From contig NZ_OZ253579.1 of the NCBI RefSeq assembly GCF_965263005.1, positions 1,155,668 through 1,219,667 on the forward strand: a stretch of DNA of 64,000 nt, in the 5' to 3' direction. Below are positions 3,815 to 48,000 of the stretch, in pieces. Made by a program: the position numbers and the translations under genes. Under the pieces are notes generated by a model. The model had not been told where the DNA came from and did no database searches. It saw only the letters and a program-made list of their open reading frames with translations. The DNA is from Candidatus Rariloculus sp. (GTDB lineage: Bacteria > Pseudomonadota > Gammaproteobacteria > Steroidobacterales > Rariloculaceae). How positions within the stretch are numbered: position 1 is the first letter of the stretch; every line of letters starts with the position of its first letter.

Positions 3815-4528
3815 ATGATTCTAGCGGCCGGACGGGGTGAGCGAATGGGGACCCTGACGCACAATCGTCCCAAGCCGCTGCTCGAAGTCGGCGCGGAGTC
3901 GCTGATCGAGCGGCACCTCCGACGCCTCTCCGAGTCCGGCACGACGCACGTCGTGATCAACCTGTCGTACCGCGGCGAGCAGATTCGCACGCAGCTCGGC
4001 GACGGGGCGCGCTGGAACCTGAGCATCAACTACAGCGAGGAGGGCGAGCCGCCGCTGGAAACAGGCGGCGGAATCATCAGGGTGCTGCCGCGGCTCGGTC
4101 GCGAGCCTTTTCTCCTGATCAACGCCGACGTGCTCACCGATTTCGACTTCTCGGCACTGCGGCTGGGGGACGCGTCGGGTGTGCTCGTGTTGGCGCCCAA
4201 CCCGGCCTTCCGCACGCACGGGGACTTTGGTCTGGACGAGCGATCGATGGTGACGCAGGCACCGCCAAGCTATACGTTTACCGGCGTTTCCATGCTTGAT
4301 CCGGCGCTGTTCGAGCCATTCGAGCCTGGCCGCCAGCCTCTCAAGCCGATTCTCGATGCAGCGATCGCACGCCGCGCACTCAGGGGCGAGCTCCATGAAG
4401 GATTGTGGCTCGACGTAGGAACACAGGAACGCCTGTACGAGGCGAGGCGCCTGCTCGGCGGGCCTGCTGTCCGGCAGCCCGTGGCGAAAGCCCCGCGTGG
4501 CACCGGGACCGGCGAGGCGCCCGCCTGA
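3815..4528 (+). CDS. murU: N-acetylmuramate alpha-1-phosphate uridylyltransferase (MurU-type nucleotidyltransferase)
   Basis: MILAAGRGERMGTLTHNRPKPLLEVG...GEPPLETGGGI...FLLINADVLTDFDF closely follows the Pseudomonas MurU pattern, and the gene is divergent from lptD as in pseudomonads. ORF 3689..4528 was trimmed to the Met before the G-rich NTP loop; 3791 is an alternative start. The last roughly 17 codons and the stop lie inside repeat copy A. Confidence 0.8.
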   Translation: MILAAGRGERMGTLTHNRPKPLLEVGAESLIERHLRRLSESGTTHVVINLSYRGEQIRTQLGDGARWNLSINYSEEGEPPLETGGGIIRVLPRLGREPFLLINADVLTDFDFSALRLGDASGVLVLAPNPAFRTHGDFGLDERSMVTQAPPSYTFTGVSMLDPALFEPFEPGRQPLKPILDAAIARRALRGELHEGLWLDVGTQERLYEARRLLGGPAVRQPVAKAPRGTGTGEAPA

Positions 4529-4668
4529 CAAGGCGCGAGGAGTGAGAATATTGGACATATTCGAACGACGAGCAACGCAGCTCAGGCGGGATGCATCGCC
4601 GGTTGATCAGCCGTCTTCGGCGAGGCGGTCTGCCGCCCCATGCAGCGGGGCTTTTGCCACGGGCTGCT
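4474..4668 (-). repeat. Palindromic MITE/REP-like element, copy A (long form, about 195 bp)
   Basis: Its termini are GCAGCCCGTGGCGAAAGCCCCGC and GCGGGGCTTTTGCCACGGGCTGCT, which are inverted. The core is GAGAATATTGGACATATTCGAAC. It aligns along its whole length with the copies at 14183, 25018 and 26683. Confidence 0.9.
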
Positions 4669-9057: not shown

Positions 9058-9950
9058 GAACGTTGGCCGGCGCGTTCGCGGCGGGCCTGCTCGCAGCCGC
9101 GCCCGTTGCGCAGGCGGAACTCTACTATCTTATCGTCGGCGGCCTTGGCGGCGAGACGACCTACGAGGAAAACTTCGCCGCCTATACGCAATCGCTCGCC
9201 GAGGCGGCCCGGCGGACGGTTGGCGAGGAGTCGCGCGTGGCGGTGCTTGCGGGCGCGGACGCAAGCCTCGAGGCGCTTCGCGAGAGCCTGTCAGGGCTTG
9301 CCGAGCGCGCCGGCGAAACGGATAGCCTGGCAGTCTTTCTGGTTGGTCATGGGAGCTACGACGGCAGTCAGTACAAGTTCAATCTTCCGGGCCCCGATAT
9401 CGACGGCAATGAGCTTGGCGAGTTGCTCGCGGGCGTGCCGGCCCGCACTCAGCTCATCGTCAATGCGACGAGCGCGAGCGGTGCGGTGCTCGAGGATTGG
9501 AGCGCCGAGAACAGAACGGTGATCACGGCGACCCGCAGCGGCGCCGAGCGCAACGCCACGCGCTTCGCCGAGCATTGGGCCGAGGCGCTGTCGACGGACG
9601 AGTCCGACCTCGACAAGAACGGTGTGATTACCGCCCGGGAGGCTTTCGATTACGCGTCGCGCAAGGTCGCCGACAGCTACGAGTCCGAAGGCACGCTTGC
9701 GACCGAGCATCCGCAGATCGCGGGCGATACCGCGGCGCGGTTCGATGTCGCAAGGCTTACGGCGCGGGTCGCCGATACGCCGCAGATGCAGACGCTCATC
9801 ACGGAGCTTGAGGGGCTGGAGGAACAGATTGCGGCGCTGCGCTTACTCCGCGACGAGATGCCTGTCGAGGATTACCTGGCGCAGCTTCAGGACCTGCTCG
9901 TACAGCTCGCCCTCGCGCAGCAACAGATCGACGAGGCCGAGGCGCAGTAG
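9054..9950 (+). CDS. secreted legumain/C13 (caspase-fold)-like protein with Ser at the expected nucleophile position
   Basis: A GTG start at 9054 overlaps the upstream stop (GTGA). The signal peptide is VRTLAGAFAAGLLAAAPVAQA. The sequence reads LAVFLVGHGSYDG...QLIVNATSASG, with the His codon at 9348-9350 and Ser (AGC, 9471-9473) 41 residues later, where C13 enzymes have Cys. The C-terminus is coiled-coil. Confidence 0.65.
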   Translation: MRTLAGAFAAGLLAAAPVAQAELYYLIVGGLGGETTYEENFAAYTQSLAEAARRTVGEESRVAVLAGADASLEALRESLSGLAERAGETDSLAVFLVGHGSYDGSQYKFNLPGPDIDGNELGELLAGVPARTQLIVNATSASGAVLEDWSAENRTVITATRSGAERNATRFAEHWAEALSTDESDLDKNGVITAREAFDYASRKVADSYESEGTLATEHPQIAGDTAARFDVARLTARVADTPQMQTLITELEGLEEQIAALRLLRDEMPVEDYLAQLQDLLVQLALAQQQIDEAEAQ

Positions 9951-9954
9951 ACCG

Positions 9955-12212
9955 ATGAGGCTTAAAGCCCGCTATCTCTGGCTCGCGCTCGCCGTCGCCG
10001 CACCTCAATCGCACGCGTTCAGGATCGAATACGGCGCAGACCGGCAAGAGGAGCTCGCGGCCTGCGACCGGGCGCTCTACACGGGCCAGCGCGGCGAAGC
10101 CGGAAGCTGTTATCGAACCCTGCTCGCCACGCACGATGACGTCCGGGTCAAAGCTGAGGCCGCCCGCTCGCTCGGCGACCTGCGCGCCGCGAACGGGTTC
10201 TTTCAGACCGCGCTCGAAGCCTATCCCGACGATGCCGCGGTCCGCGCCAGATGGGCCGAGCTGTTTGTCGAAACACATCAGGACAACGAGGCCGTGAAGC
10301 TCTATCAGGAGAGCCTGAGCCTTGCGCCGGATCATGCCCCCGCGATTCTCGGTCTCGCGAAAATCTCCGCGGGCCGTTTCGAGGAAAGGACGCGCGAGTG
10401 GGTCGACGAGGTCCTCGATCTCGAGCCGGAACACGTCGGTGCTCATCTGCTGCTCGCCCGCATGAATCTCGAGGAAGGTGACATCGACGAGGGTGACGAG
10501 CAGCTGACGCACGCGCTCGCGATCGTCGAGGAACGCGGTCTGCCGCCGCTCGAGATATATGCGCTCAAGGCTTCGGTCGACCTGCTGCGAGGCATCGAGC
10601 AGAGCCCGTGGGCGGATCGCGCGCTCGAATACAACGCGGGCTACGGGGAAATTTTCGCGACGCCCGCGCACTTCTACGTGATCACGCGACGTTATCGTGA
10701 AGCGATCGAGCTGTATCGCCGCGCCGTCGAGATTCAGCCGGACCTCTATTCGGCCCATGCCGAGCTTGGCATCAACCTGCTGCGCGAGAACAAGGTCGCC
10801 GAGGCGCAGAGGCATCTTGCGCTGGCTTACCGGGGAGACCCCTACAGCGCAGGTATCGTCAACACGCTGCGGCTGATCGACAGTTTCGACAACTTTGTCG
10901 TCACGGAGCACGGCACGGCCATCGACGAGAACAGCGCCGAGCCAGGCGCGATCCTGCGCCTGCACCGCGACGAAGATCTTTTCATCAGGCCCTATGTGCT
11001 CGATCTCGTGCACCGCAGCATTGACGTGTTCTCCGAGCGCTACAACTTCGAGCTCGAAGCGCCCGTCGTCGTGGAGCTCTATCCCGAGCACGACGACTTC
11101 GCAGTCCGTATCTCGGGCCTGCCCGGCATCAGCCTGCTTGGTGTCACGTTCGGCTATCTGGTCGCGATGGACAGCCCGTCGGGGCGCGCCGAGGGTGACT
11201 TCCACTGGGGCACGACGCTATGGCACGAGATAGCGCACGTGTTCACGCTCGAGGCGACGGATCATCTCGTGCCGCGCTGGTTCAGCGAGGGCGTGTCGGT
11301 ATACGAGGAATGGAGCACGGGACCGCTGCCGGGCCGCCACATCCCGCCGCACGTGTTGCAGGCGATCGACGAGGACAAGCTGCTGCCCATCGCGGAGCTC
11401 GATCAGGGCTTCATCCGGCCGACCTACGAGAACCAGGTCATCGTCTCCTATATGCAGGCCGGGTTGATCTGCGAGTACATCGCGGCGAACTGGGGCCAGA
11501 AAACTCTGCAGGCGATGCTCGGACATTACAGGGACGGCCTCGAGACGGGCGAGGCGGTCGAGCGCGCTCTCGGTATCACGGCCGAGCAGTTCGACGACGG
11601 ATTCGATGCGTTTGTCGCGGACGAGTTCGGTACGGTGCTCGGCAATCTCGAAGATTGGCAGCAAGCGCAGGGCGCAGCTTACGAGAGCGCCGCGCAGGGC
11701 GCGTGGCGCGAGGCGTTGGCGGATGCGTCGCGAGCGATCGGGTTCTTTCCCGAGTATGTCGACGACGGCACTGCCTACCTCGTCAAGTCCAGAGCGCATG
11801 AGGAACTCGGCGAGCACGATGCGGCGCTGGAGGCGCTGCGCGAGTACCGAAGGCGCGGCGGCCACGATCCCGGGGCGCTCAATCAGCTTGCCGGCTGGCT
11901 GCGTGACGCCGGCAGAGACGCCGAGGCGATCAGCGTCCTCGAGGATGTCATCCAGGTCGCGCCGCTGCAGGAAGAGCTTCACGTCCGGCTCGGGGATTGG
12001 CTGCTCGAGGCCGGGCGCGCGGACCAGGCACTGAACGAGTATCAGGTGTTGGCCGCGATGAATCCCCACGACCAGGCTTCGGTCCATTTCCGGCTTGCGA
12101 AAGCCTATCGCGAGCTAGAGCATCCGGATCTGACGCGCGAGCATGTATTGCGTGCCCTTGAAATCGCGCCCCATTACCGCGAGGCGCAGCAACTATTACT
12201 GGAGATCGTACG

Positions 12213-12216
<4 letters not shown>
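9955..12216 (+). CDS. TPR-repeat protein with HExxH (peptidase MA-like) domain
   Basis: ORF 9697..12216 was trimmed to MRLKARYLWLALAVAAPQSHA (signal peptide). TPR-like repeats lie on both sides of WHEIAHVFTLEATDHLVPRWFSEGVSVYEE (HEIAH at 11224-11238), which is a gluzincin-type HExxH...E arrangement. Confidence 0.8.
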
Positions 12217-13262
<1,046 letters not shown>

Positions 13263-13270
13263 CGGCGGCG

Positions 13271-14179
13271 ATGAGCGGACGGGCCTCGGTTGCACCGCAA
13301 CACCTTCTCCAGCCGGAGGTGCTGGCCAGCTTGTCCAATCTCGATCTCGTGGCCCGGGCAGTCGCCGAAGGCTTTCTCAATGGCCTGCACCGCTCGCCGT
13401 TCTTCGGCTTCAGCCAGGAGTTCGCAGAGTATCGCGCCTACTCCGAGGGCGACGACCCCCGCTTCGTGGACTGGAACGTGTACGCGCGCACCGAGCGTAC
13501 CTACATCAAGCGCTACATCGGCGAGACCAACACCCACCTCGTACTGCTTCTCGATGCCAGCGCATCGATGGCTTACGGCACGGGCAGCGTGAGCAGGCTT
13601 CAGTACGGGAAATTCCTCGCCGCGACGCTCGCCTACCTCGCGGGCCGGCAACACGACGCGGTCGGCCTGATCATCTTTGACGAAGACGTTCGCGAGCACA
13701 GGCGGCCGTCGTCGCGCGCCGGTCACTTGCAGGGGGTGTTTCACGCGATCGACCGTGCCGAGCCGGGTGCCGGCACCGATATCGACGCGCCTTTCGAACG
13801 CTTCCGGGAGTTCGAGAAGGGGCGAGGCCTCGTCGCCGTGATTTCCGATTTCTATTGCGATCCGGAGGCGTTGCTCAAGGGCGTGCAGCCGCTCGCGTAC
13901 CAGGGTCAGGACGTGATTCTCTTTCAGCTTCTCGACCCGGAGGAGCTCGATCCCCAGCTCAAGGAATCGGCGTTGTTCGAGGACATGGAGACGCAGGAGA
14001 CCATGGAGGTGTCGCCGATCTTCATGCGGACACGCTATCGCGAGCGTATCGACACGCACATCGATGCGCTGAAGACAGCAGCGGTCGGCATCGGCGCGGA
14101 CCACACGCTGGTCAATATCGCCGCGCCGCTCAACGAAGCGCTCAAGGACTATCTGACGTTCAGGCAGCGCCGTGGCTGA
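13271..14179 (+). CDS. DUF58 domain-containing protein (VWA-like, MoxR partner)
   Basis: The sequence GLHRSPFFGFSQEFAEYRAYSEGDDPRFVDWNVYARTERTYIKRY...LVLLLDASASMAYG is the canonical DUF58 N-terminal motif plus a DxSxS MIDAS. It starts 8 bp after the MoxR gene. Confidence 0.9.
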   Translation: MSGRASVAPQHLLQPEVLASLSNLDLVARAVAEGFLNGLHRSPFFGFSQEFAEYRAYSEGDDPRFVDWNVYARTERTYIKRYIGETNTHLVLLLDASASMAYGTGSVSRLQYGKFLAATLAYLAGRQHDAVGLIIFDEDVREHRRPSSRAGHLQGVFHAIDRAEPGAGTDIDAPFERFREFEKGRGLVAVISDFYCDPEALLKGVQPLAYQGQDVILFQLLDPEELDPQLKESALFEDMETQETMEVSPIFMRTRYRERIDTHIDALKTAAVGIGADHTLVNIAAPLNEALKDYLTFRQRRG

Positions 14180-14182
14180 CCG

Positions 14183-14344
14183 AGCAGCCCGTGGCAAAAG
14201 CCCCGCTGCATTCCACCGGCGATGCATCCCGCCTGAGCTGCGTTGCTCGTCGCTCGAATATGTCCAATATTCTCGCTCCTCGCGCCTTGTCAGGCGGGCG
14301 CCTCGCCGGTCTCGGTGCGACGCGGGGTTCTGCCACGGGCTGCT
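14183..14344 (+). repeat. Palindromic MITE/REP-like element, copy B (short form, about 162 bp), inside the MoxR operon
   Basis: It reads AGCAGCCCGTGGCAAAAGCCCCGCTGCAT...CGAATATGTCCAATATTCTCG...GCGGGGTTCTGCCACGGGCTGCT. It fills most of the 192-bp gap between the DUF58 and BatA-like genes. Confidence 0.9.
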
Positions 14345-14371
14345 GGCTCGAATGTTCGCGAGATCGCTGCC

Positions 14372-25017: not shown

Positions 25018-25213
25018 AGCAGCCCGTGGCAAAAGCCCCGCTGCATGGGGCGGAAGACCGCCTCGCCGAAGACGTCTGATCAACCGGCGATGCATCCCGG
25101 CTGAGCTGCGTTGCTCGTCGCTCAAGTATGTTCAATATTCTTACTCCTCGCGCCTTGTCAGGCGGGCGCCTCGCCGGTCTCGGTGCAACGCGGGGGATTT
25201 GCCACGGGTTGCT
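25018..25213 (+). repeat. Palindromic MITE/REP-like element, copy C (long form, about 196 bp)
   Basis: It reads AGCAGCCCGTGGCAAAAGCCCCGCTGCATGGGGCGGAAGACCGCCTCGCCGAAGACG...CAAGTATGTTCAATATTCTTAC...GCGGGGGATTTGCCACGGGTTGCT. It lies in the divergent promoter gap between the M20 and NHL genes. Confidence 0.9.
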
Positions 25214-25442
25214 GGATGAGCTGATACGATGCCGGCATGATCGTGCCCCACCCTTTACGGGTTGGCAAGCTGGTTGCAACGAAGCGGGAAGGACCGTCCC
25301 TTGAGGCACGCAGTTCCTGTGCAGGCGGAATGCCGTTAACATGAAGCACGGCCGTTCCTGCCAGCAGTGTGTCTCGCCCGGTCCTTTTCGGGAGCGGGCG
25401 AGACAGGTGCTCGACCGGCGCACACACAAGAAGGGGGATGGT

Positions 25443-32749: not shown

Positions 32750-32853
32750 AGCACCCCGTGGCAAGAGTCCCGCTGCATGGGGCGGAAGACCGCCTTGCCG
32801 GCCGGGCGCCTCGCCGGTCTCGGTGCGACGCGGGACTTTCGCCACGGGGTGCT
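32750..32853 (+). repeat. Palindromic MITE/REP-like element, copy E (internally deleted, about 104 bp)
   Basis: It reads AGCACCCCGTGGCAAGAGTCCCGCTGCATGGGGCGGAAGACCGCCTTGCCGGCCGGGCGCCTCGCCGGTCTCGGTGCGACGCGGGACTTTCGCCACGGGGTGCT. Both termini are present, but the central GAATAT...AATATTC core is missing. Confidence 0.8.
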
Positions 32854-43671: not shown

Positions 43672-43746
43672 GGGCGATTAGCTCAGCGGGAGAGCGCTGC
43701 CTTCACACGGCAGAGGTCACTGGTTCAATCCCAGTATCGCCCACCA
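43672..43746 (+). tRNA. tRNA-Val (anticodon CAC)
   Basis: GGGCGATTAGCTCAGCGGGAGAGCGCTGCCTTCACACGGCAGAGGTCACTGGTTCAATCCCAGTATCGCCCACCA folds as a cloverleaf. The anticodon stem is CTGCC/GGCAG with loop TTCACAC, and CCA is encoded. Confidence 0.9.
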
Positions 43747-43765: not shown

Positions 43766-45178
43766 ATGACAGTCCGCACGCGGTTCGCACCGAGCCCTAC
43801 CGGCCATCTCCACATCGGTAGCGTCCGCACGGCGCTTTACGCGTGGTTGTTAGCCCGTCATCACGGCGGCGAATACATACTGCGGATCGAGGACACGGAC
43901 CGCGAACGCTCCACGCAGGAAGCCATCGACGCCATCCTCGATGGGTTGAGCTGGCTCGGTATCGATGCAGACGAAGGCCCCGTGTATCAGAGCCGCAGAT
44001 TCGATCGCCACGCCGAAGTCCTGCAGCGCCTGCTCGACCAGGACCTGGCGTATCGCTGCTATTGCAGCCGCGAAGAGATCGATGCGATGCGGGCCGAGGC
44101 GCAAGCGAAAGGCTTGAAGCCCCGCTACGATGGCCGCTGCCGCGATGGCTCGCGCGCCCGGGACGATGTCGCGCCCGTGGTGCGATTCAAGAATCCGCTC
44201 GAAGGCCAGGTCGTTGTCGACGACCTCGTCAAGGGTCGAATAACGTTCAACAACGCCGAACTCGACGACTTGATCCTTGCCCGTTCAGATGGCTCGCCGA
44301 CCTACAACTTCGTCGTTGTCGTCGACGACACCGACATGCGGATCAGCCATGTCGTCAGGGGCGACGACCACCTCAACAACACGCCGCGCCAGATCAATCT
44401 GTTTCGCGCCCTGCGCACCGAGCCGCCGGCATTCGCGCATCTGCCGATGATTCACGGGCCGGACGACACGAAGCTCTCGAAGCGTCACGGCGCGGTCGAC
44501 GTCCTCGAATACCGGAAGATGGGATTCCTCCCCGAGGCGCTGCTCAACTATCTGTTGAGGCTCGGCTGGTCGCGCGGCGATCAGGAGATATTCACGCTCG
44601 ATGAGATGATCGATCTCTTCGGGCTCGAAGCGGTGAGCCGATCCGCGGCGAGATTCGATCCGCTGAAGCTGCTCTGGGTCAACCATCAGCACATTCAATC
44701 GGTGGACGCGGGGCGCCTGGCCGAGCTGCTCGCAAGTCAGCTTCGCGCGCAGGGGCTCGATCCGGCCAACGGGCCGCCGTTGCCCTTGACGGTCAAGGCC
44801 CTGAGCGAACGCAGCCAGACCGTGCTTGAGATGGCCGAGCGCGCGAATTGCTATTACGGGGAGTTCGAGGAATTCGACGCCAAGTCTGCCAAAGCGCATC
44901 TAAGACCGGTTGCGCGCAATGCGCTTGCCGCGGTGCGCGAGACGCTTGAGATACTGGAAACGTGGACTGAGGAATCGGCCCAGGCGGCAGTCGAAACCGT
45001 CGCGGATCGCCTCGAGCTCAAGCTCGGCAAGGTCGCTCAGCCCCTGCGTGTGGCGTTGACGGCCAAGGCCGCGTCGCCCGGGATCGGGACGACGCTGATG
45101 CTCGTTGGCCGCGAGCGGGCGCTGCTCAGGATCGATCGGGCGCTTGCGTACATAGATGCGCGCGCCGCCGGGCAATGA
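43766..45178 (+). CDS. gltX: glutamate--tRNA ligase
   Basis: RFAPSPTGHLHIGSVRTAL is the HIGH motif. LSKRHG is the KMSKS-equivalent motif. The length is 470 aa. Confidence 0.95.
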   Translation: MTVRTRFAPSPTGHLHIGSVRTALYAWLLARHHGGEYILRIEDTDRERSTQEAIDAILDGLSWLGIDADEGPVYQSRRFDRHAEVLQRLLDQDLAYRCYCSREEIDAMRAEAQAKGLKPRYDGRCRDGSRARDDVAPVVRFKNPLEGQVVVDDLVKGRITFNNAELDDLILARSDGSPTYNFVVVVDDTDMRISHVVRGDDHLNNTPRQINLFRALRTEPPAFAHLPMIHGPDDTKLSKRHGAVDVLEYRKMGFLPEALLNYLLRLGWSRGDQEIFTLDEMIDLFGLEAVSRSAARFDPLKLLWVNHQHIQSVDAGRLAELLASQLRAQGLDPANGPPLPLTVKALSERSQTVLEMAERANCYYGEFEEFDAKSAKAHLRPVARNALAAVRETLEILETWTEESAQAAVETVADRLELKLGKVAQPLRVALTAKAASPGIGTTLMLVGRERALLRIDRALAYIDARAAGQ

Positions 45179-45211: not shown

Positions 45212-45239
45212 TTGACCGATTTTGCCGCGGTGCTAGACT
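45212..45239 (+). promoter_or_regulatory. candidate sigma70 promoter for the tRNA-Ala/tRNA-Glu pair (TTGACC-16-TAGACT)
   Basis: TTGACC lies at 45212-45217 and TAGACT at 45234-45239. This is about 20 nt upstream of the tRNA-Ala 5' end. Confidence 0.45.
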
Positions 45240-45259: not shown

Positions 45260-45335
<76 letters not shown>

Positions 45336-45352: not shown

Positions 45353-45428
45353 GTCCCCATCGTCTAGAGGCCTAGGACACCGCCCTTTCACGGCGGCAAC
45401 CGGGGTTCGAATCCCCGTGGGGACGCCA
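45353..45428 (+). tRNA. tRNA-Glu (anticodon UUC)
   Basis: GTCCCCATCGTCTAGAGGCCTAGGACACCGCCCTTTCACGGCGGCAACCGGGGTTCGAATCCCCGTGGGGACGCCA folds as a cloverleaf. The anticodon loop is CTTTCAC and CCA is encoded. Confidence 0.9.
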
Positions 45429-45465
45429 CTGTGAGACGGTCCATTCCGGGCACATGGTTTACAGT

Positions 45466-45727
45466 TTATTCTGGAGACATGGTTAACACTTTCTCCGGCA
45501 CGAAGGGATTGGGTGCGGGTTCGACGCGGCCCTCATCCTGATCAAAGAATCCTGAATCATGGCCGAGGAAGCTGACCAGCCAAATCCGGTCCTCGATCTC
45601 GCGGACGCCCACCACTTGGCCGGCGAAGTCCTGGCTAAGGTTGATTCTCCGTTTGCCGATGCACATGCGCGCGGACCGAATGAACGGGGAGGGGCAGCGC
45701 GCCGTTCGAATTCGACCGTAGGGTCAG
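45466..45727 (-). pseudogene. transposase remnant (C-terminal end of an rve/DDE integrase-core transposase, IS481/IS3-like)
   Basis: CIGKRRINLSQDFAGQVVGVREIEDRIWLVSFLGHDSGFFDQDEGRVEPAPNPFVPEKVLTMSPE matches the conserved C-terminal tail of this transposase type (..IWLVSF..YDLGFFD...VEP..NPF..KVLPMSP). The frame opens directly after a TGA at about 45727. No catalytic core or inverted repeats were seen. Confidence 0.55.
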
Positions 45728-45928
45728 GAGCTACGACCTGCGCTAGGCACGAGGACCGTTGCCGACGCGGTATCGGCACGGAAATCAGCAATACTTGATC
45801 GAACGCAACCCGCGCGATCACCTACCGCGCTACCCCCCTTCATTTCGCTATAACCAATTTTTGAGTCTGATCAGGGAATAGCATCGGGGTATTGAGTATT
45901 TGTGTAATACTGTGATATTAAAACTGGT

Positions 45929-46867
45929 ATGTCAGGTGCTGGCTCATATCGGATTCCGGCGGTCAGCACGCTGCTCGCTTTCGAAAGTGCGGCCCGAAAT
46001 GGCAGTTTCTCCGATGCGGCCAGCGAGTTACGCACCTCGCAATCCGCAATTAGCCGGCACATCGCCAGGCTCGAGCGGCAGCTTACGACTCGACTCTTCC
46101 ACCGGACCCGTGCGGGCGTGAGCTTGACAGCGGCCGGGCGTCATTTCCGCGACGCCGTCGTCGCGGGGCTCGGAGTCATCAGCGCGGGCGCCACGGAAGC
46201 CACCTACTTGTCCAATGGCGACCAGGTGGTCATCGCTTGTGGTCACGACATTTCCCATCTGGTCGTGTTTCAGCGCTACGATGTGTTACGGGCGACGCTC
46301 GGCAAGGATACCCGGGTGCGCCTTCTGACATACCAGCGCAACCCCAGGGCTATGCCCATCGATCCGATTGCCGATATCGTGTTGGCCTGGAACACCACGA
46401 ACGTGGCGGCTGAGGACATGGCGCTGGTTTTCAAGGAGGAGGTGCAATTGGTCTGCTCGCCCGGGTATGCGGCAACCCATGCGGACACCTTGAGCAAGCC
46501 CATTTCGGATTGGGGCGGTCTCACCTTTCTTGACGTCGATAGTCCCAACCTGGGTTGGGCCACCTGGTCGGACTGGTTCGAGACGGCCGGGTACCCCGTG
46601 CCGAGGCCTCGATTCGAAGGATTCGACAGCTACGTTCAGGTGCTGGAGGCCGCCTGCGCCGGGCTGGGTATCGCGCTGGGTTGGCGCAACTGCATCGAGC
46701 GGTATCTCGACTCCGGCGCGATCGAGATGCTCGCCGAAGGGTTCGTTGAATTCGACAACAGCTTCGTCGCCGCGCTGACGGCGAAGGGCCGTAGAAACGC
46801 GAGTGCCCGAAAGTGCCTCGCCTTCTTCGAACACTGGCCGCTGCGCGGAACCACTCCGACGCAGTAG
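45929..46867 (+). CDS. LysR-family transcriptional regulator
   Basis: The N-terminal wHTH is LLAFESAARNGSFSDAASELRTSQSAISRHIARLERQLTTRLFHR, followed by a LysR substrate-binding domain. An AT-rich region lies upstream. Confidence 0.85.
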   Translation: MSGAGSYRIPAVSTLLAFESAARNGSFSDAASELRTSQSAISRHIARLERQLTTRLFHRTRAGVSLTAAGRHFRDAVVAGLGVISAGATEATYLSNGDQVVIACGHDISHLVVFQRYDVLRATLGKDTRVRLLTYQRNPRAMPIDPIADIVLAWNTTNVAAEDMALVFKEEVQLVCSPGYAATHADTLSKPISDWGGLTFLDVDSPNLGWATWSDWFETAGYPVPRPRFEGFDSYVQVLEAACAGLGIALGWRNCIERYLDSGAIEMLAEGFVEFDNSFVAALTAKGRRNASARKCLAFFEHWPLRGTTPTQ

Positions 46868-46933
46868 CGATGCCGGCTGGTGTGGCGGCCCGGGCCGGTG
46901 CCGCGCGCTGTGATACCATCGGGCGCCGTGAAA

Positions 46934-47320
46934 ATGACGCCAACCGAATGGCTCGATGCCTATCGCAAAGCTTGGGTCGAGCGTGACGCAGATGCTGCGG
47001 CGGAACTGTTCACCCAGGACGCGACGTACGCCGAGCAACCCTACCAGGACGCGTTTGTCGGTCGTCGCGGCATCCACGAATATTGGGCGCGTGTGACCGC
47101 GGCTCAAGCCAACGTCGAGATTCGCTACGGCACGCCGATCACAGTCGGCGACCGCACGGCCGTGGAATGGTGGACAACGCTGACGAACGACGTCGTGCCG
47201 ATCACGCTCGCAGGCGCATTTATTCTCACTTTCGATGCGTCCGGGCTCTGCCGCACGTTGCGCGAGTACTGGAGCTTCGCCGAAGGGACGAAGCAACCGA
47301 AGAGCGGCTGGGGATCCTGA
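46934..47320 (+). CDS. SnoaL-like / NTF2-fold protein
   Basis: ORF 46880..47320 was trimmed to MTPTEWLDAYRKAWVERDADAAAELFTQDATY, a typical SnoaL-like opening. The length is 128 aa. Confidence 0.7.
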   Translation: MTPTEWLDAYRKAWVERDADAAAELFTQDATYAEQPYQDAFVGRRGIHEYWARVTAAQANVEIRYGTPITVGDRTAVEWWTTLTNDVVPITLAGAFILTFDASGLCRTLREYWSFAEGTKQPKSGWGS

Positions 47321-47351
47321 CAACCGGGGCTCCAATCCCCGTGGGGATGCC
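47321..47351 (+). repeat. Degenerate direct copy of the tRNA-Glu 3' end (att-like islet boundary)
   Basis: caaccggggCtcCaatccccgtggggaTgcc at 47321-47351 matches caaccggggTtcGaatccccgtggggaCgcc at 45397-45427 at 28 of 31 positions. Confidence 0.8.
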
Positions 47352-48000
47352 GATTGCCAAAATCGACGCGCGCGTGAGCAGCTTGAGCAACGAAGATTCC
47401 CCGTCGGCCCCACCGCTATGGGGCCTGGTGCTGGCAGGAGGCGAGAGCCGCAGGATGGGACGGGACAAGGGCCGGCTCGCCTATTTCGGAGAACCGCAAG
47501 CGTCCCGGGCGTGGCGGATGCTTGAGTCCGTGTGCCCGCGCGCGTTCGTATCCGTGCGCCCCGAGCAGGCCGGCGCCGAGCCGTATTCGCAACTTCCGTA
47601 CATCGTTGATGACGATACTGCCAAGGGTCCGGTCGCAGGCGTGTTGGCTGCCTGGGCGCAATGGGAAGGCGTCGCATGGCTATTGCTCGCGGCGGACATG
47701 CCGTTCGTCGATGAGGCGATGCTGCGCGAGCTGATACGCGCTCGCGATCCGACGGCGCTCGCAACGGCATTTCGCCATCGCGGCGGTGCGCCGGAGCCCT
47801 TGTGCACGATCTGGGAACCGCGTGCCCATCCGGCCGTGCTCGGACGCGCGCGCGCCAGGGAGCGCTCGCTGCGCGGTCTGCTCGAGGCGTCCCCGGTCCG
47901 ATGGGTCGACCCCCCGGACGCCTCAAGGCTCGCAAGCGTCAACACGCCCGAAGACTATGAGCGCGTCCGCGCCGCGCTTGGGCCGAGCCGCGCCCCGTAG
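47347..48000 (+). CDS. MobA-like NTP transferase (probable molybdenum cofactor guanylyltransferase)
   Basis: It has LVLAGGESRRMGRDKG (the GxxLAGGxxxRMG loop) and LLLAADMPF. The start is uncertain: the ATG at 47347 lies inside the att-like repeat, and in-frame alternatives are GTG 47374 and TTG 47383. Confidence 0.7.
   Translation: MPIAKIDARVSSLSNEDSPSAPPLWGLVLAGGESRRMGRDKGRLAYFGEPQASRAWRMLESVCPRAFVSVRPEQAGAEPYSQLPYIVDDDTAKGPVAGVLAAWAQWEGVAWLLLAADMPFVDEAMLRELIRARDPTALATAFRHRGGAPEPLCTIWEPRAHPAVLGRARARERSLRGLLEASPVRWVDPPDASRLASVNTPEDYERVRAALGPSRAP

Follow-up and report, generated by a model that had tools for sequence, protein, structure and literature searches.

The best-described systems resembling the locus considered here are the tRNA-associated islands of P4-like tyrosine integrases. 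These islands insert into the 3′ part of a tRNA gene and leave a direct repeat of the tRNA 3′ segment, the tRNA being rebuilt on one side; they are present in some relatives and absent from others, and a single tRNA may be used repeatedly. Integration sites within tRNA genes reportedly fall into sublocation classes. The stretch of 64,000 nucleotides from Candidatus Rariloculus sp. analysed here (contig NZ_OZ253579.1, positions 1,155,668 to 1,219,667; hereafter the window) contains a 1.9-kb islet, between a tRNA-Glu gene and a gene for a MobA-like protein, that shares each of these features, and a P4-type integrase is found at the same tRNA in a relative. The islet differs from such islands in that it has no integrase, is only 1.9 kb long, is near-native in composition and acquired its patchwork content later. 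In our judgement it is highly probable that the islet is a stranded one, bounded by attachment-site (att) sequences and created by integrase-mediated insertion at tRNA-Glu, and that its patchwork cargo came afterwards. So read, the islet is the usual mark that integrase-mediated insertion leaves behind and belongs to a very well-known kind; it is a textbook case of the way in which tRNA genes gather and then strand foreign DNA.

Direct Repeat of the tRNA-Glu 3′ End

The islet is delimited by the following features:

45353–45428, plus strand: tRNA-Glu(UUC) gene with encoded CCA, the integration target (ARAGORN; Rfam, 58.9 bits)
45397–45427, plus strand: proximal direct repeat CAACCGGGGTTCGAATCCCCGTGGGGACGCC, the attL-side core, the last 31 nt of the tRNA short of its final A
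47321–47351, plus strand: distal direct repeat CAACCGGGGCTCCAATCCCCGTGGGGATGCC, the attR-side core, a displaced and non-functional tRNA-Glu 3′ end
47352–47373: 22-nt spacer from the distal repeat to the MobA-like start, the presumed ancestral tRNA-to-MobA spacer

A first-pass annotation of the window, made from its letters alone, had noticed that the 31-nt tRNA-Glu 3′ end recurs with three mismatches immediately after the stop codon of a SnoaL-like gene. Both observations hold. The two copies are in direct orientation and identical at 28/31 positions, with all three substitutions in the distal copy and two of these in the T-loop box. At up to three mismatches the 64-kb window holds just these two matches, and 100 shuffles yielded none; the local alignment score is 23.5, compared with a shuffle maximum of 12.5. 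The proximal repeat spans the variable loop, the T-arm, the 3′ acceptor strand, the discriminator and the CC of the encoded CCA, and the tRNA-Glu gene is left intact, as expected of an island linked to a tRNA 3′ end. The distal copy begins at 47321, on the base after the SnoaL stop codon (47318–47320). A role for it as a terminator or structured RNA was considered and rejected: its fold is no better than those of shuffled sequences (z = 0.13), and terminator prediction gives nothing at this position.

Bacteria often have tRNA genes in tandem copies, and a lone 3′ fragment could also be produced by deletion. The distal copy might accordingly be the remnant of another tRNA-Glu gene, in tandem with the first, that lost its 5′ two-thirds by deletion or overwriting, a possibility already raised, as an unrecognised tRNA-like gene, when the repeat was first noticed. 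ARAGORN, which found three tRNAs, predicts none at 47321, and Rfam gives no match to a tRNA model there even at E ≤ 10. Upstream of the distal copy lies an intact SnoaL 3′ end, with no similarity to the 5′ part of the tRNA, and nowhere among the relatives and empty sites does the locus contain a pair of tRNA-Glu genes. Site-specific recombination fits both the extent of the repeat, which runs from the variable loop as far as the CC, and the three other tRNA-end repeats found at this locus in other genomes. The second-gene explanation is thus disfavoured, and we consider it very unlikely.

Empty Sites and Breakpoints in Relatives

The neighbourhood of the islet comprises these further features:

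43672–43746: tRNA-Val (ARAGORN)
43766–45178: gltX, between tRNA-Val and tRNA-Ala
45260–45335, plus strand: tRNA-Ala(GGC) (ARAGORN; Rfam tRNA, 61.7 bits)
47374–48000, plus strand: MobA-like NTP transferase gene, the first of the conserved right flank (Pfam NTP_transf_3)

Relatives were sought in several ways. Three loci (L002, L003, L006; GltX 83–84% identical) came from a gltX-based scan of species genomes, more contigs were reached through homologues of the MobA-like protein, and empty sites through a metagenome scan with that protein. A strict DNA pattern (the tRNA-Glu end, 35–65 nt, the MobA-like N-terminus) gave no match in the metagenome contigs, its spacing and sequence being too specific.

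An empty site, with tRNA-Glu directly followed by the MobA-like gene, had been suggested at the outset as the arrangement to look for, and four loci have it. In L090, L091, L097 and L100 the 76-nt tRNA-Glu sequence, which is identical in relatives and empty sites alike, is followed 4–28 nt later by the MobA-like start; in L097 a DegT gene lies downstream of the MobA-like gene, as in the window, where DegT aminotransferase was confirmed by Pfam. Because the distal repeat of the window ends 22 nt before the conserved MobA-like start, it stands where the tRNA 3′ end stands in the empty sites.

Closer relatives keep both flanks of the window and have between them, starting exactly at the tRNA 3′ end, unrelated cargo of 0.05 to more than 10 kb. 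The left flank has the conserved order tRNA-Val, gltX, tRNA-Ala, tRNA-Glu, and tRNA-Ala is syntenic in L002, L003, L006, L082 and L088. The right flank that L083, L085, L086 and L088 share with the window consists of the MobA-like, DegT, FGase, GCS2, Dus and PEPCK genes. The sister genome, L082, is 94–96% identical to the window in both flanks; L083, L085, L086 and L088 are 75–88% identical in the shared flanks. In L082, L083 and L088, homology to the window ends on the left at 45426–45429, the last base of tRNA-Glu. On the right it resumes at 47371–47374 in two of them (L083 and L088); in L082, which has the SnoaL module in common with the window, it resumes at 46893. Between these breakpoints lie 2.5 (L082), 9.7 (L083) and 3.9 kb (L088) of cargo, with different genes in each. 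L002, L003 and L006 are syntenic with the window from about 35.4 kb to tRNA-Glu and unrelated beyond it. Rather than the same LysR and SnoaL genes throughout, which would have spoken against an insertion, relatives carry other cargo at this junction; two assemblies that are 99.9% identical to the window (L171, L172) have the same islet. Taken together, the empty sites and breakpoints support insertion at the 3′ end of tRNA-Glu.

In two more distant relatives, L004 and L005, the MobA-like gene comes after gltX, and both tRNA-Ala and tRNA-Glu are missing from the interval. A tandem repeat, (CGCCGAAC)n, lies between the two genes in L004 (11460–11505), and L005 has two minus-strand open reading frames (ORFs) at 1466–2352 that look toxin–antitoxin-like by eye.

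Mosaic Cargo of the Islet

Beyond an insertion sequence (IS) remnant next to the tRNA, which is treated below, the islet contains the following:

45670–45833: 164-nt segment between the IS remnant and the LysR cassette, with no Pfam match
45834–46908, plus strand: LysR cassette, an AT-rich upstream region plus coding sequence
45834–45928: conserved AT-rich upstream region of the LysR cassette, 38% GC
45929–46867, plus strand: intact coding sequence of a LysR-type regulator, 312 aa (Pfam HTH_1 and LysR_substrate)
46893–47320, plus strand: SnoaL/NTF2 module common to L082 (96% nucleotide identity to L082 from 46893)
46934–47320, plus strand: SnoaL coding sequence (Pfam SnoaL_2)

The islet is a mosaic in which at least three modules, each with its own history, can be told apart. 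A LysR regulator, a SnoaL/NTF2-like gene and an AT-rich stretch had been read between the repeats in the first-pass annotation; Pfam confirms both genes, and the AT-rich stretch proves to be the conserved upstream region of the LysR cassette. The cassette is 88% identical over 1,075 nt to a copy in L173 (5906–6979), where it stands in an unrelated context beside a giant cadherin-like gene. The LysR gene and its AT-rich upstream region form a discrete 1.07-kb cassette, and the L173 copy points to its mobility. The cassette and the SnoaL module meet at a short overlap, GGCCGGTGCCG. The 164-nt segment at 45670–45833 has no nucleotide homologue in any examined locus except the same-species copies L171 and L172.

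Both cargo genes are intact and not decaying. The ratio of nonsynonymous to synonymous substitution rates (dN/dS) is 0.29 for LysR relative to its L173 homologue and 0.12 for SnoaL relative to L082; a “decayed” island can, it seems, keep selected cargo. In several public assemblies the LysR protein is called as 249 aa without a helix–turn–helix domain. The 312-aa ORF has an intact HTH_1 domain and matches 312-aa homologues, and the public gene call looks wrong.

Despite the close similarity of their flanks, the window and L082 have different sequence in the proximal part of the islet, and the LysR cassette has its 88% identical copy at an unrelated locus. Both observations would be explained if the region were a hot spot at which homologous recombination in the conserved flanks swaps cargo, a ready-made 31-nt repeat having come in with donor DNA instead of arising in this lineage. 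Such exchange would account for the turnover of cargo but not for the origin of the tRNA-end duplication, for which a site-specific event would still be needed somewhere. As a full explanation we regard it as unlikely; homologous exchange complements integrase-mediated insertion rather than replacing it.

Several observations weigh against the insertion of an integrative element at tRNA-Glu as we have described it. Pfam searches of the ORFs, and tblastn searches with both kinds of integrase that relatives have at this tRNA, found no integrase or integrase remnant in the islet of the window, in keeping with the first impression that none is left. The islet is therefore classed as a remnant and not as an active island, and its recombinase is one that we infer. 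The nearest empty sites come only from distant relatives, whose MobA-like proteins are 50–54% identical to that of the window, and among the relatives found none has a full-length island with an integrase and with SnoaL at its far end; at L003 the 10 kb covered stop short of the far end of the island. The GC content of the islet, compared with the flanks as had been suggested, is only mildly atypical (61.1% versus 64.0%, the 3.5th percentile). This shift stems from the IS remnant and from the AT-rich promoter region; GC content at third codon positions (GC3) and codon usage are near native, with GC3 and codon likelihood inside or close to the range of the flanking genes. As evidence of foreign origin, base composition is weak. 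Finally, homologues of SnoaL and LysR occur in ordinary chromosomal contexts in other genomes, including a SnoaL homologue about 1 Mb away on the L003 contig. Neither gene, therefore, need have come with the original element, and SnoaL was rejected as a marker of the full-length island.

The early description of the islet as a stranded remnant of a larger island is sound in that it is bounded by att sequences and immobile, with no recombinase and a degenerated repeat. It requires amendment in that a mosaic of three or more modules is something other than one island reduced in size.

Integrases and Other tRNA-End Repeats at tRNA-Glu

Features at this tRNA in relatives include the following:

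L003 14272–15450: P4-type tyrosine integrase (Arm-DNA-bind_3, Phage_int_M, Phage_integrase), 150 nt past tRNA-Glu
L082 7400–9166: younger element of about 1.75 kb, bounded by the 15-nt repeat CCGTGGGGACGCCAC

About 220 nt directly past tRNA-Glu are common to L082, L083 and L088, and their minus strand encodes an integrase C-terminal remnant (phrog_95, E = 1.3e-6). A tblastn search with this fragment against plasmids gave no match, and its identification came from PHROGs instead. In L082 a nested copy of the 15-nt tRNA-end repeat occurs at 9151 and is followed by about 30 nt homologous to the window sequence past tRNA-Glu. This displaced junction indicates a later insertion, of a younger element, at the same tRNA end, by which the older junction was moved inwards. 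The younger element carries the C-terminal integrase remnant, an intact Fic/SoFic-like gene and a weak, below-cutoff HTH_21-like fragment that is IS3-like in look.

In arrays of the SCCmec type (staphylococcal cassette chromosome mec), elements accrete in tandem at one att site and short att cores are repeated. L082 resembles such arrays in having a younger element at the same tRNA end, with its own 15-nt repeat and the older junction inside it. The resemblance is limited, however: the window has a single repeat pair, and in L082 the recombinase is known from the C-terminal remnant alone.

Further traces of the tRNA end are found at two other loci. In L095, an islet of which nearly everything has been deleted, a degenerate 22-nt copy starts 48 nt past the tRNA, with the MobA-like ATG 17 nt beyond the copy. 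In L085 an exact copy of 15 nt stands past the AT-rich end of an island of more than 8 kb with methylase and helicase genes, one ORF of which we take to be AlpA-like. The junction of tRNA-Glu and the MobA-like gene is a hot spot in repeated use, and this one tRNA-Glu has served at least three kinds of mobile element in this uncultured gammaproteobacterial lineage.

On the other side of tRNA-Glu in L003, between tRNA-Ala and tRNA-Glu, there is a 2.2-kb insert with an AbiEii toxin gene (11789–14045).

IS481-Family Remnant and Possible tRNA Homing

The tRNA-proximal part of the islet is occupied by the following:

45429–45438: 10-nt spacer from the CCA end of the tRNA to the IS terminus
45439–45488, minus strand: right inverted repeat (IRR), two tandem units of about 25 nt, with its terminus ...GGAC towards the tRNA; the terminal unit in this IS481-family clade is ...CCATGTNNCCNGAAYGGAC
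45466–45669, minus strand: C-terminal 67 codons and stop of an IS481-family transposase, the rest of the IS being deleted

A transposase remnant had been placed at 45466–45727 in the first-pass annotation. It is real, and on the minus strand as stated, but shorter, since the match to transposases ends at 45669. In tblastn searches, intact homologues match 45469–45669 over their last 66–67 codons at 55–57% identity (E about 1e-18), the remnant aligning with residues 322–387 and 333–398 of intact transposases that carry LZ_Tnp_IS481 and rve. Only these C-terminal 67 codons remain in the window, out of a type of protein that in the IS481 family has a DDE (rve) domain and an N-terminal helix–turn–helix and leucine zipper. 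The IRR of the window aligns with the IRRs of L169, L170 and L174, in each of which the left inverted repeat matches; the left inverted repeat is absent from the window. An intact copy, in L169, is about 1,291 bp long, and intact relatives are annotated by NCBI as IS481 family.

The position of this IS relative to the tRNA recurs elsewhere. A spacing of 10–11 nt from the tRNA to the terminus is also seen in L002, L006, L093, L101 and rhizobial plasmid copies, and in both intact rhizobial plasmid copies and remnants the 3′ end of the transposase gene always points towards the 3′ end of the tRNA. The presence of the IS next to the tRNA explains why 43 nt past tRNA-Glu look conserved in L002, L006, L093 and L101; the roughly 43 nt common to L002 and L006 had been considered as ancestral chromosome, a reading that would have told against insertion at the tRNA end and was abandoned when they proved to be the IRR.

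Twenty-two loci were sampled; one copy is cut by another IS and one remnant is too short, leaving 20 scored ends. The IS loci are L002, L006, L093, L101, L169, L170, L174, L180–L185 and L188–L193, together with 45439–45669 of the window; L006, with the same 10-nt spacing, stands outside the table of 20 ends. A T-loop box (ATTCGAACC-like) lies 26–28 nt, mostly 26 nt, from ...GGAC in 17 of the 20. By our own calculation, chance would place a box of this kind at those positions in about 0.4% of sites. Exceptions to the spacing are L175 and L192, and L195 has just a 16-nt fragment of tRNA-Ser. Roughly ten different targets are represented, among them tRNA-Arg(CCG), tRNA-Ser(CGA), tRNA-Glu(UUC) and several tRNA-like fragments, of which one lies beside an RtcB gene. 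In Rhizobium tumorigenes 932, two copies whose transposases are identical stand next to two different boxes and would be independent insertions.

It is possible, though we place it somewhat short of an even chance, that an IS481-family clade spanning Alpha- and Gammaproteobacteria recognises tRNA T-arm DNA and inserts in one orientation, with its terminus 26–28 bp from the T-loop box and 10–11 bp past the CCA, by means of a single protein and no separate target selector. Classical members of the family, such as IS481 and IS1002, use a short target motif; the clade seen in the window differs from them in its fixed distance and orientation relative to T-arm DNA. Type V-K CRISPR-associated elements, the eukaryotic Ty3 and the Dictyostelium TRE elements home to tRNA genes. 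Tn7-like transposons that target tRNA genes have also been reported (PMC9881144, PMC11837452). In common with these elements, the IS clade sits a short, fixed distance from a tRNA gene that it does not disrupt, and so uses a safe landing site. It differs in being a 1.3-kb element with a single gene, for a DDE transposase, with no TniQ/TnsD-like selector or guide RNA, and in residing in bacteria, which have no RNA polymerase III machinery. The searchable literature, whose coverage is incomplete, yielded no description of a tRNA-homing element of the IS481 type, nor of ‘Rariloculus’, the only tRNA-targeting elements found there being Tn7-like. If the proposal is correct, a 1.3-kb IS with a fixed distance from the tRNA T-arm would offer a simple model for target-site choice by a DDE transposase, and tRNA-homing IS elements would be a confounder in tRNA-based island prediction.

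Because an IS of a clade that targets tRNA flanks adjoins the tRNA, the question arises whether the IS itself, by mobilising flanking DNA or by recombination between copies, made the tRNA-end duplication with no integrase involved. The plasmid copy in L195, which is followed by the truncated tRNA-Ser fragment, could be taken as a sign of such a process. The distal repeat, however, lies across the IS remnant from the IRR, in direct orientation and 1.9 kb away, beside no IS end. The left end of the intact L169 element, the one left flank examined, has no tRNA copy. The tRNA-end repeat of L095 is free of IS sequence, and none was seen next to the repeat of L085. This explanation is disfavoured and is the least likely of those weighed here. 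The transposase remnant is probably not island cargo; it belongs to a putatively tRNA-homing IS that most likely arrived after the island.

A Possible History of the Locus

The ancestral order would have been gltX, tRNA-Ala, tRNA-Glu, about 20 nt, the MobA-like gene and DegT. An integrative element would have recombined by way of an att core that matched exactly the last 31 or so nucleotides of tRNA-Glu, rebuilding a functional tRNA at the left and leaving the displaced tRNA 3′ end beside the MobA-like gene. Given the 31-nt core, a tyrosine integrase is the likely agent. The orthologous distal copy in L082 has two of the three substitutions seen in the window, namely those in the T-loop, and the insertion therefore predates the split of the two lineages, which differ by about 0.07–0.15 synonymous substitutions per site (dS).

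The element would then have lost its recombinase and most of its content, and the putatively tRNA-homing IS481-family IS would have inserted 10 nt past the rebuilt tRNA. In the lineage of the window the IS would have been truncated and the LysR cassette joined onto the SnoaL module; in L082 a second element would have integrated at the tRNA end. The MobA-like gene, having lost its position just past the tRNA operon, would now have to be transcribed from within the islet.

The MobA-Like Gene and Its Start

A MobA-like gene had been recognised downstream of the islet at the outset, and Pfam assigns its product to NTP_transf_3. The score against TIGR02665 is 90.5 bits, below the cut-off of 151.85, and no MobA equivalog cut-off is reached; since only the Pfam family passes, the protein is named MobA-like.

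An in-frame ATG at 47347 does lie inside the distal repeat, and the first-pass annotation had drawn from it the possibility that the insertion redefined the 5′ end, promoter or start of the gene. For the upstream context the idea stands, since in the window SnoaL has taken the place of the former upstream (promoter) context of the MobA-like gene. For the start codon it does not. Homologues begin MSNLRNDD at the position of GTG 47374 (GTG in L083, TTG in L085), and ATG 47347 results from a lineage-specific C-to-T change (GACGCC to GATGCC) where L082 keeps ACG. The start is thus most likely GTG 47374 and was probably not redefined. That ATG 47347 arose in this lineage explains why gene callers disagree: the protein is given 217 aa in L171 and L172, but in L082 it is called from an internal ATG and has 181 aa. 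Public calls that use ATG 47347 or an internal ATG in place of GTG 47374 look wrong. Annotation of the locus may be corrected in two places, with a MobA-like start at GTG 47374 and a LysR regulator of 312 aa.

In the empty sites the MobA-like start lies so close to the tRNA that the gene was probably transcribed ancestrally with the tRNA operon. A promoter-like site is present at 45212–45239, and terminator prediction finds none in the interval from SnoaL to the MobA-like gene; in the window the latter may be co-transcribed with SnoaL.

Interspersed Repeats

An interspersed repeat of about 60–180 nt occurs four times in the window, at 4474–4606 (plus strand), 14184–14348, 25080–25220 and 32791–32853 (all minus strand). 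The same repeat is present in L082 (18571–18632) and L088 (19941–20127), and its longest copy has terminal inverted ends, AGCAGCCCGTGGCA ... TGCCACGGGCTGCT. It may be an element resembling a miniature inverted-repeat transposable element (MITE) or a repetitive extragenic palindrome (REP).

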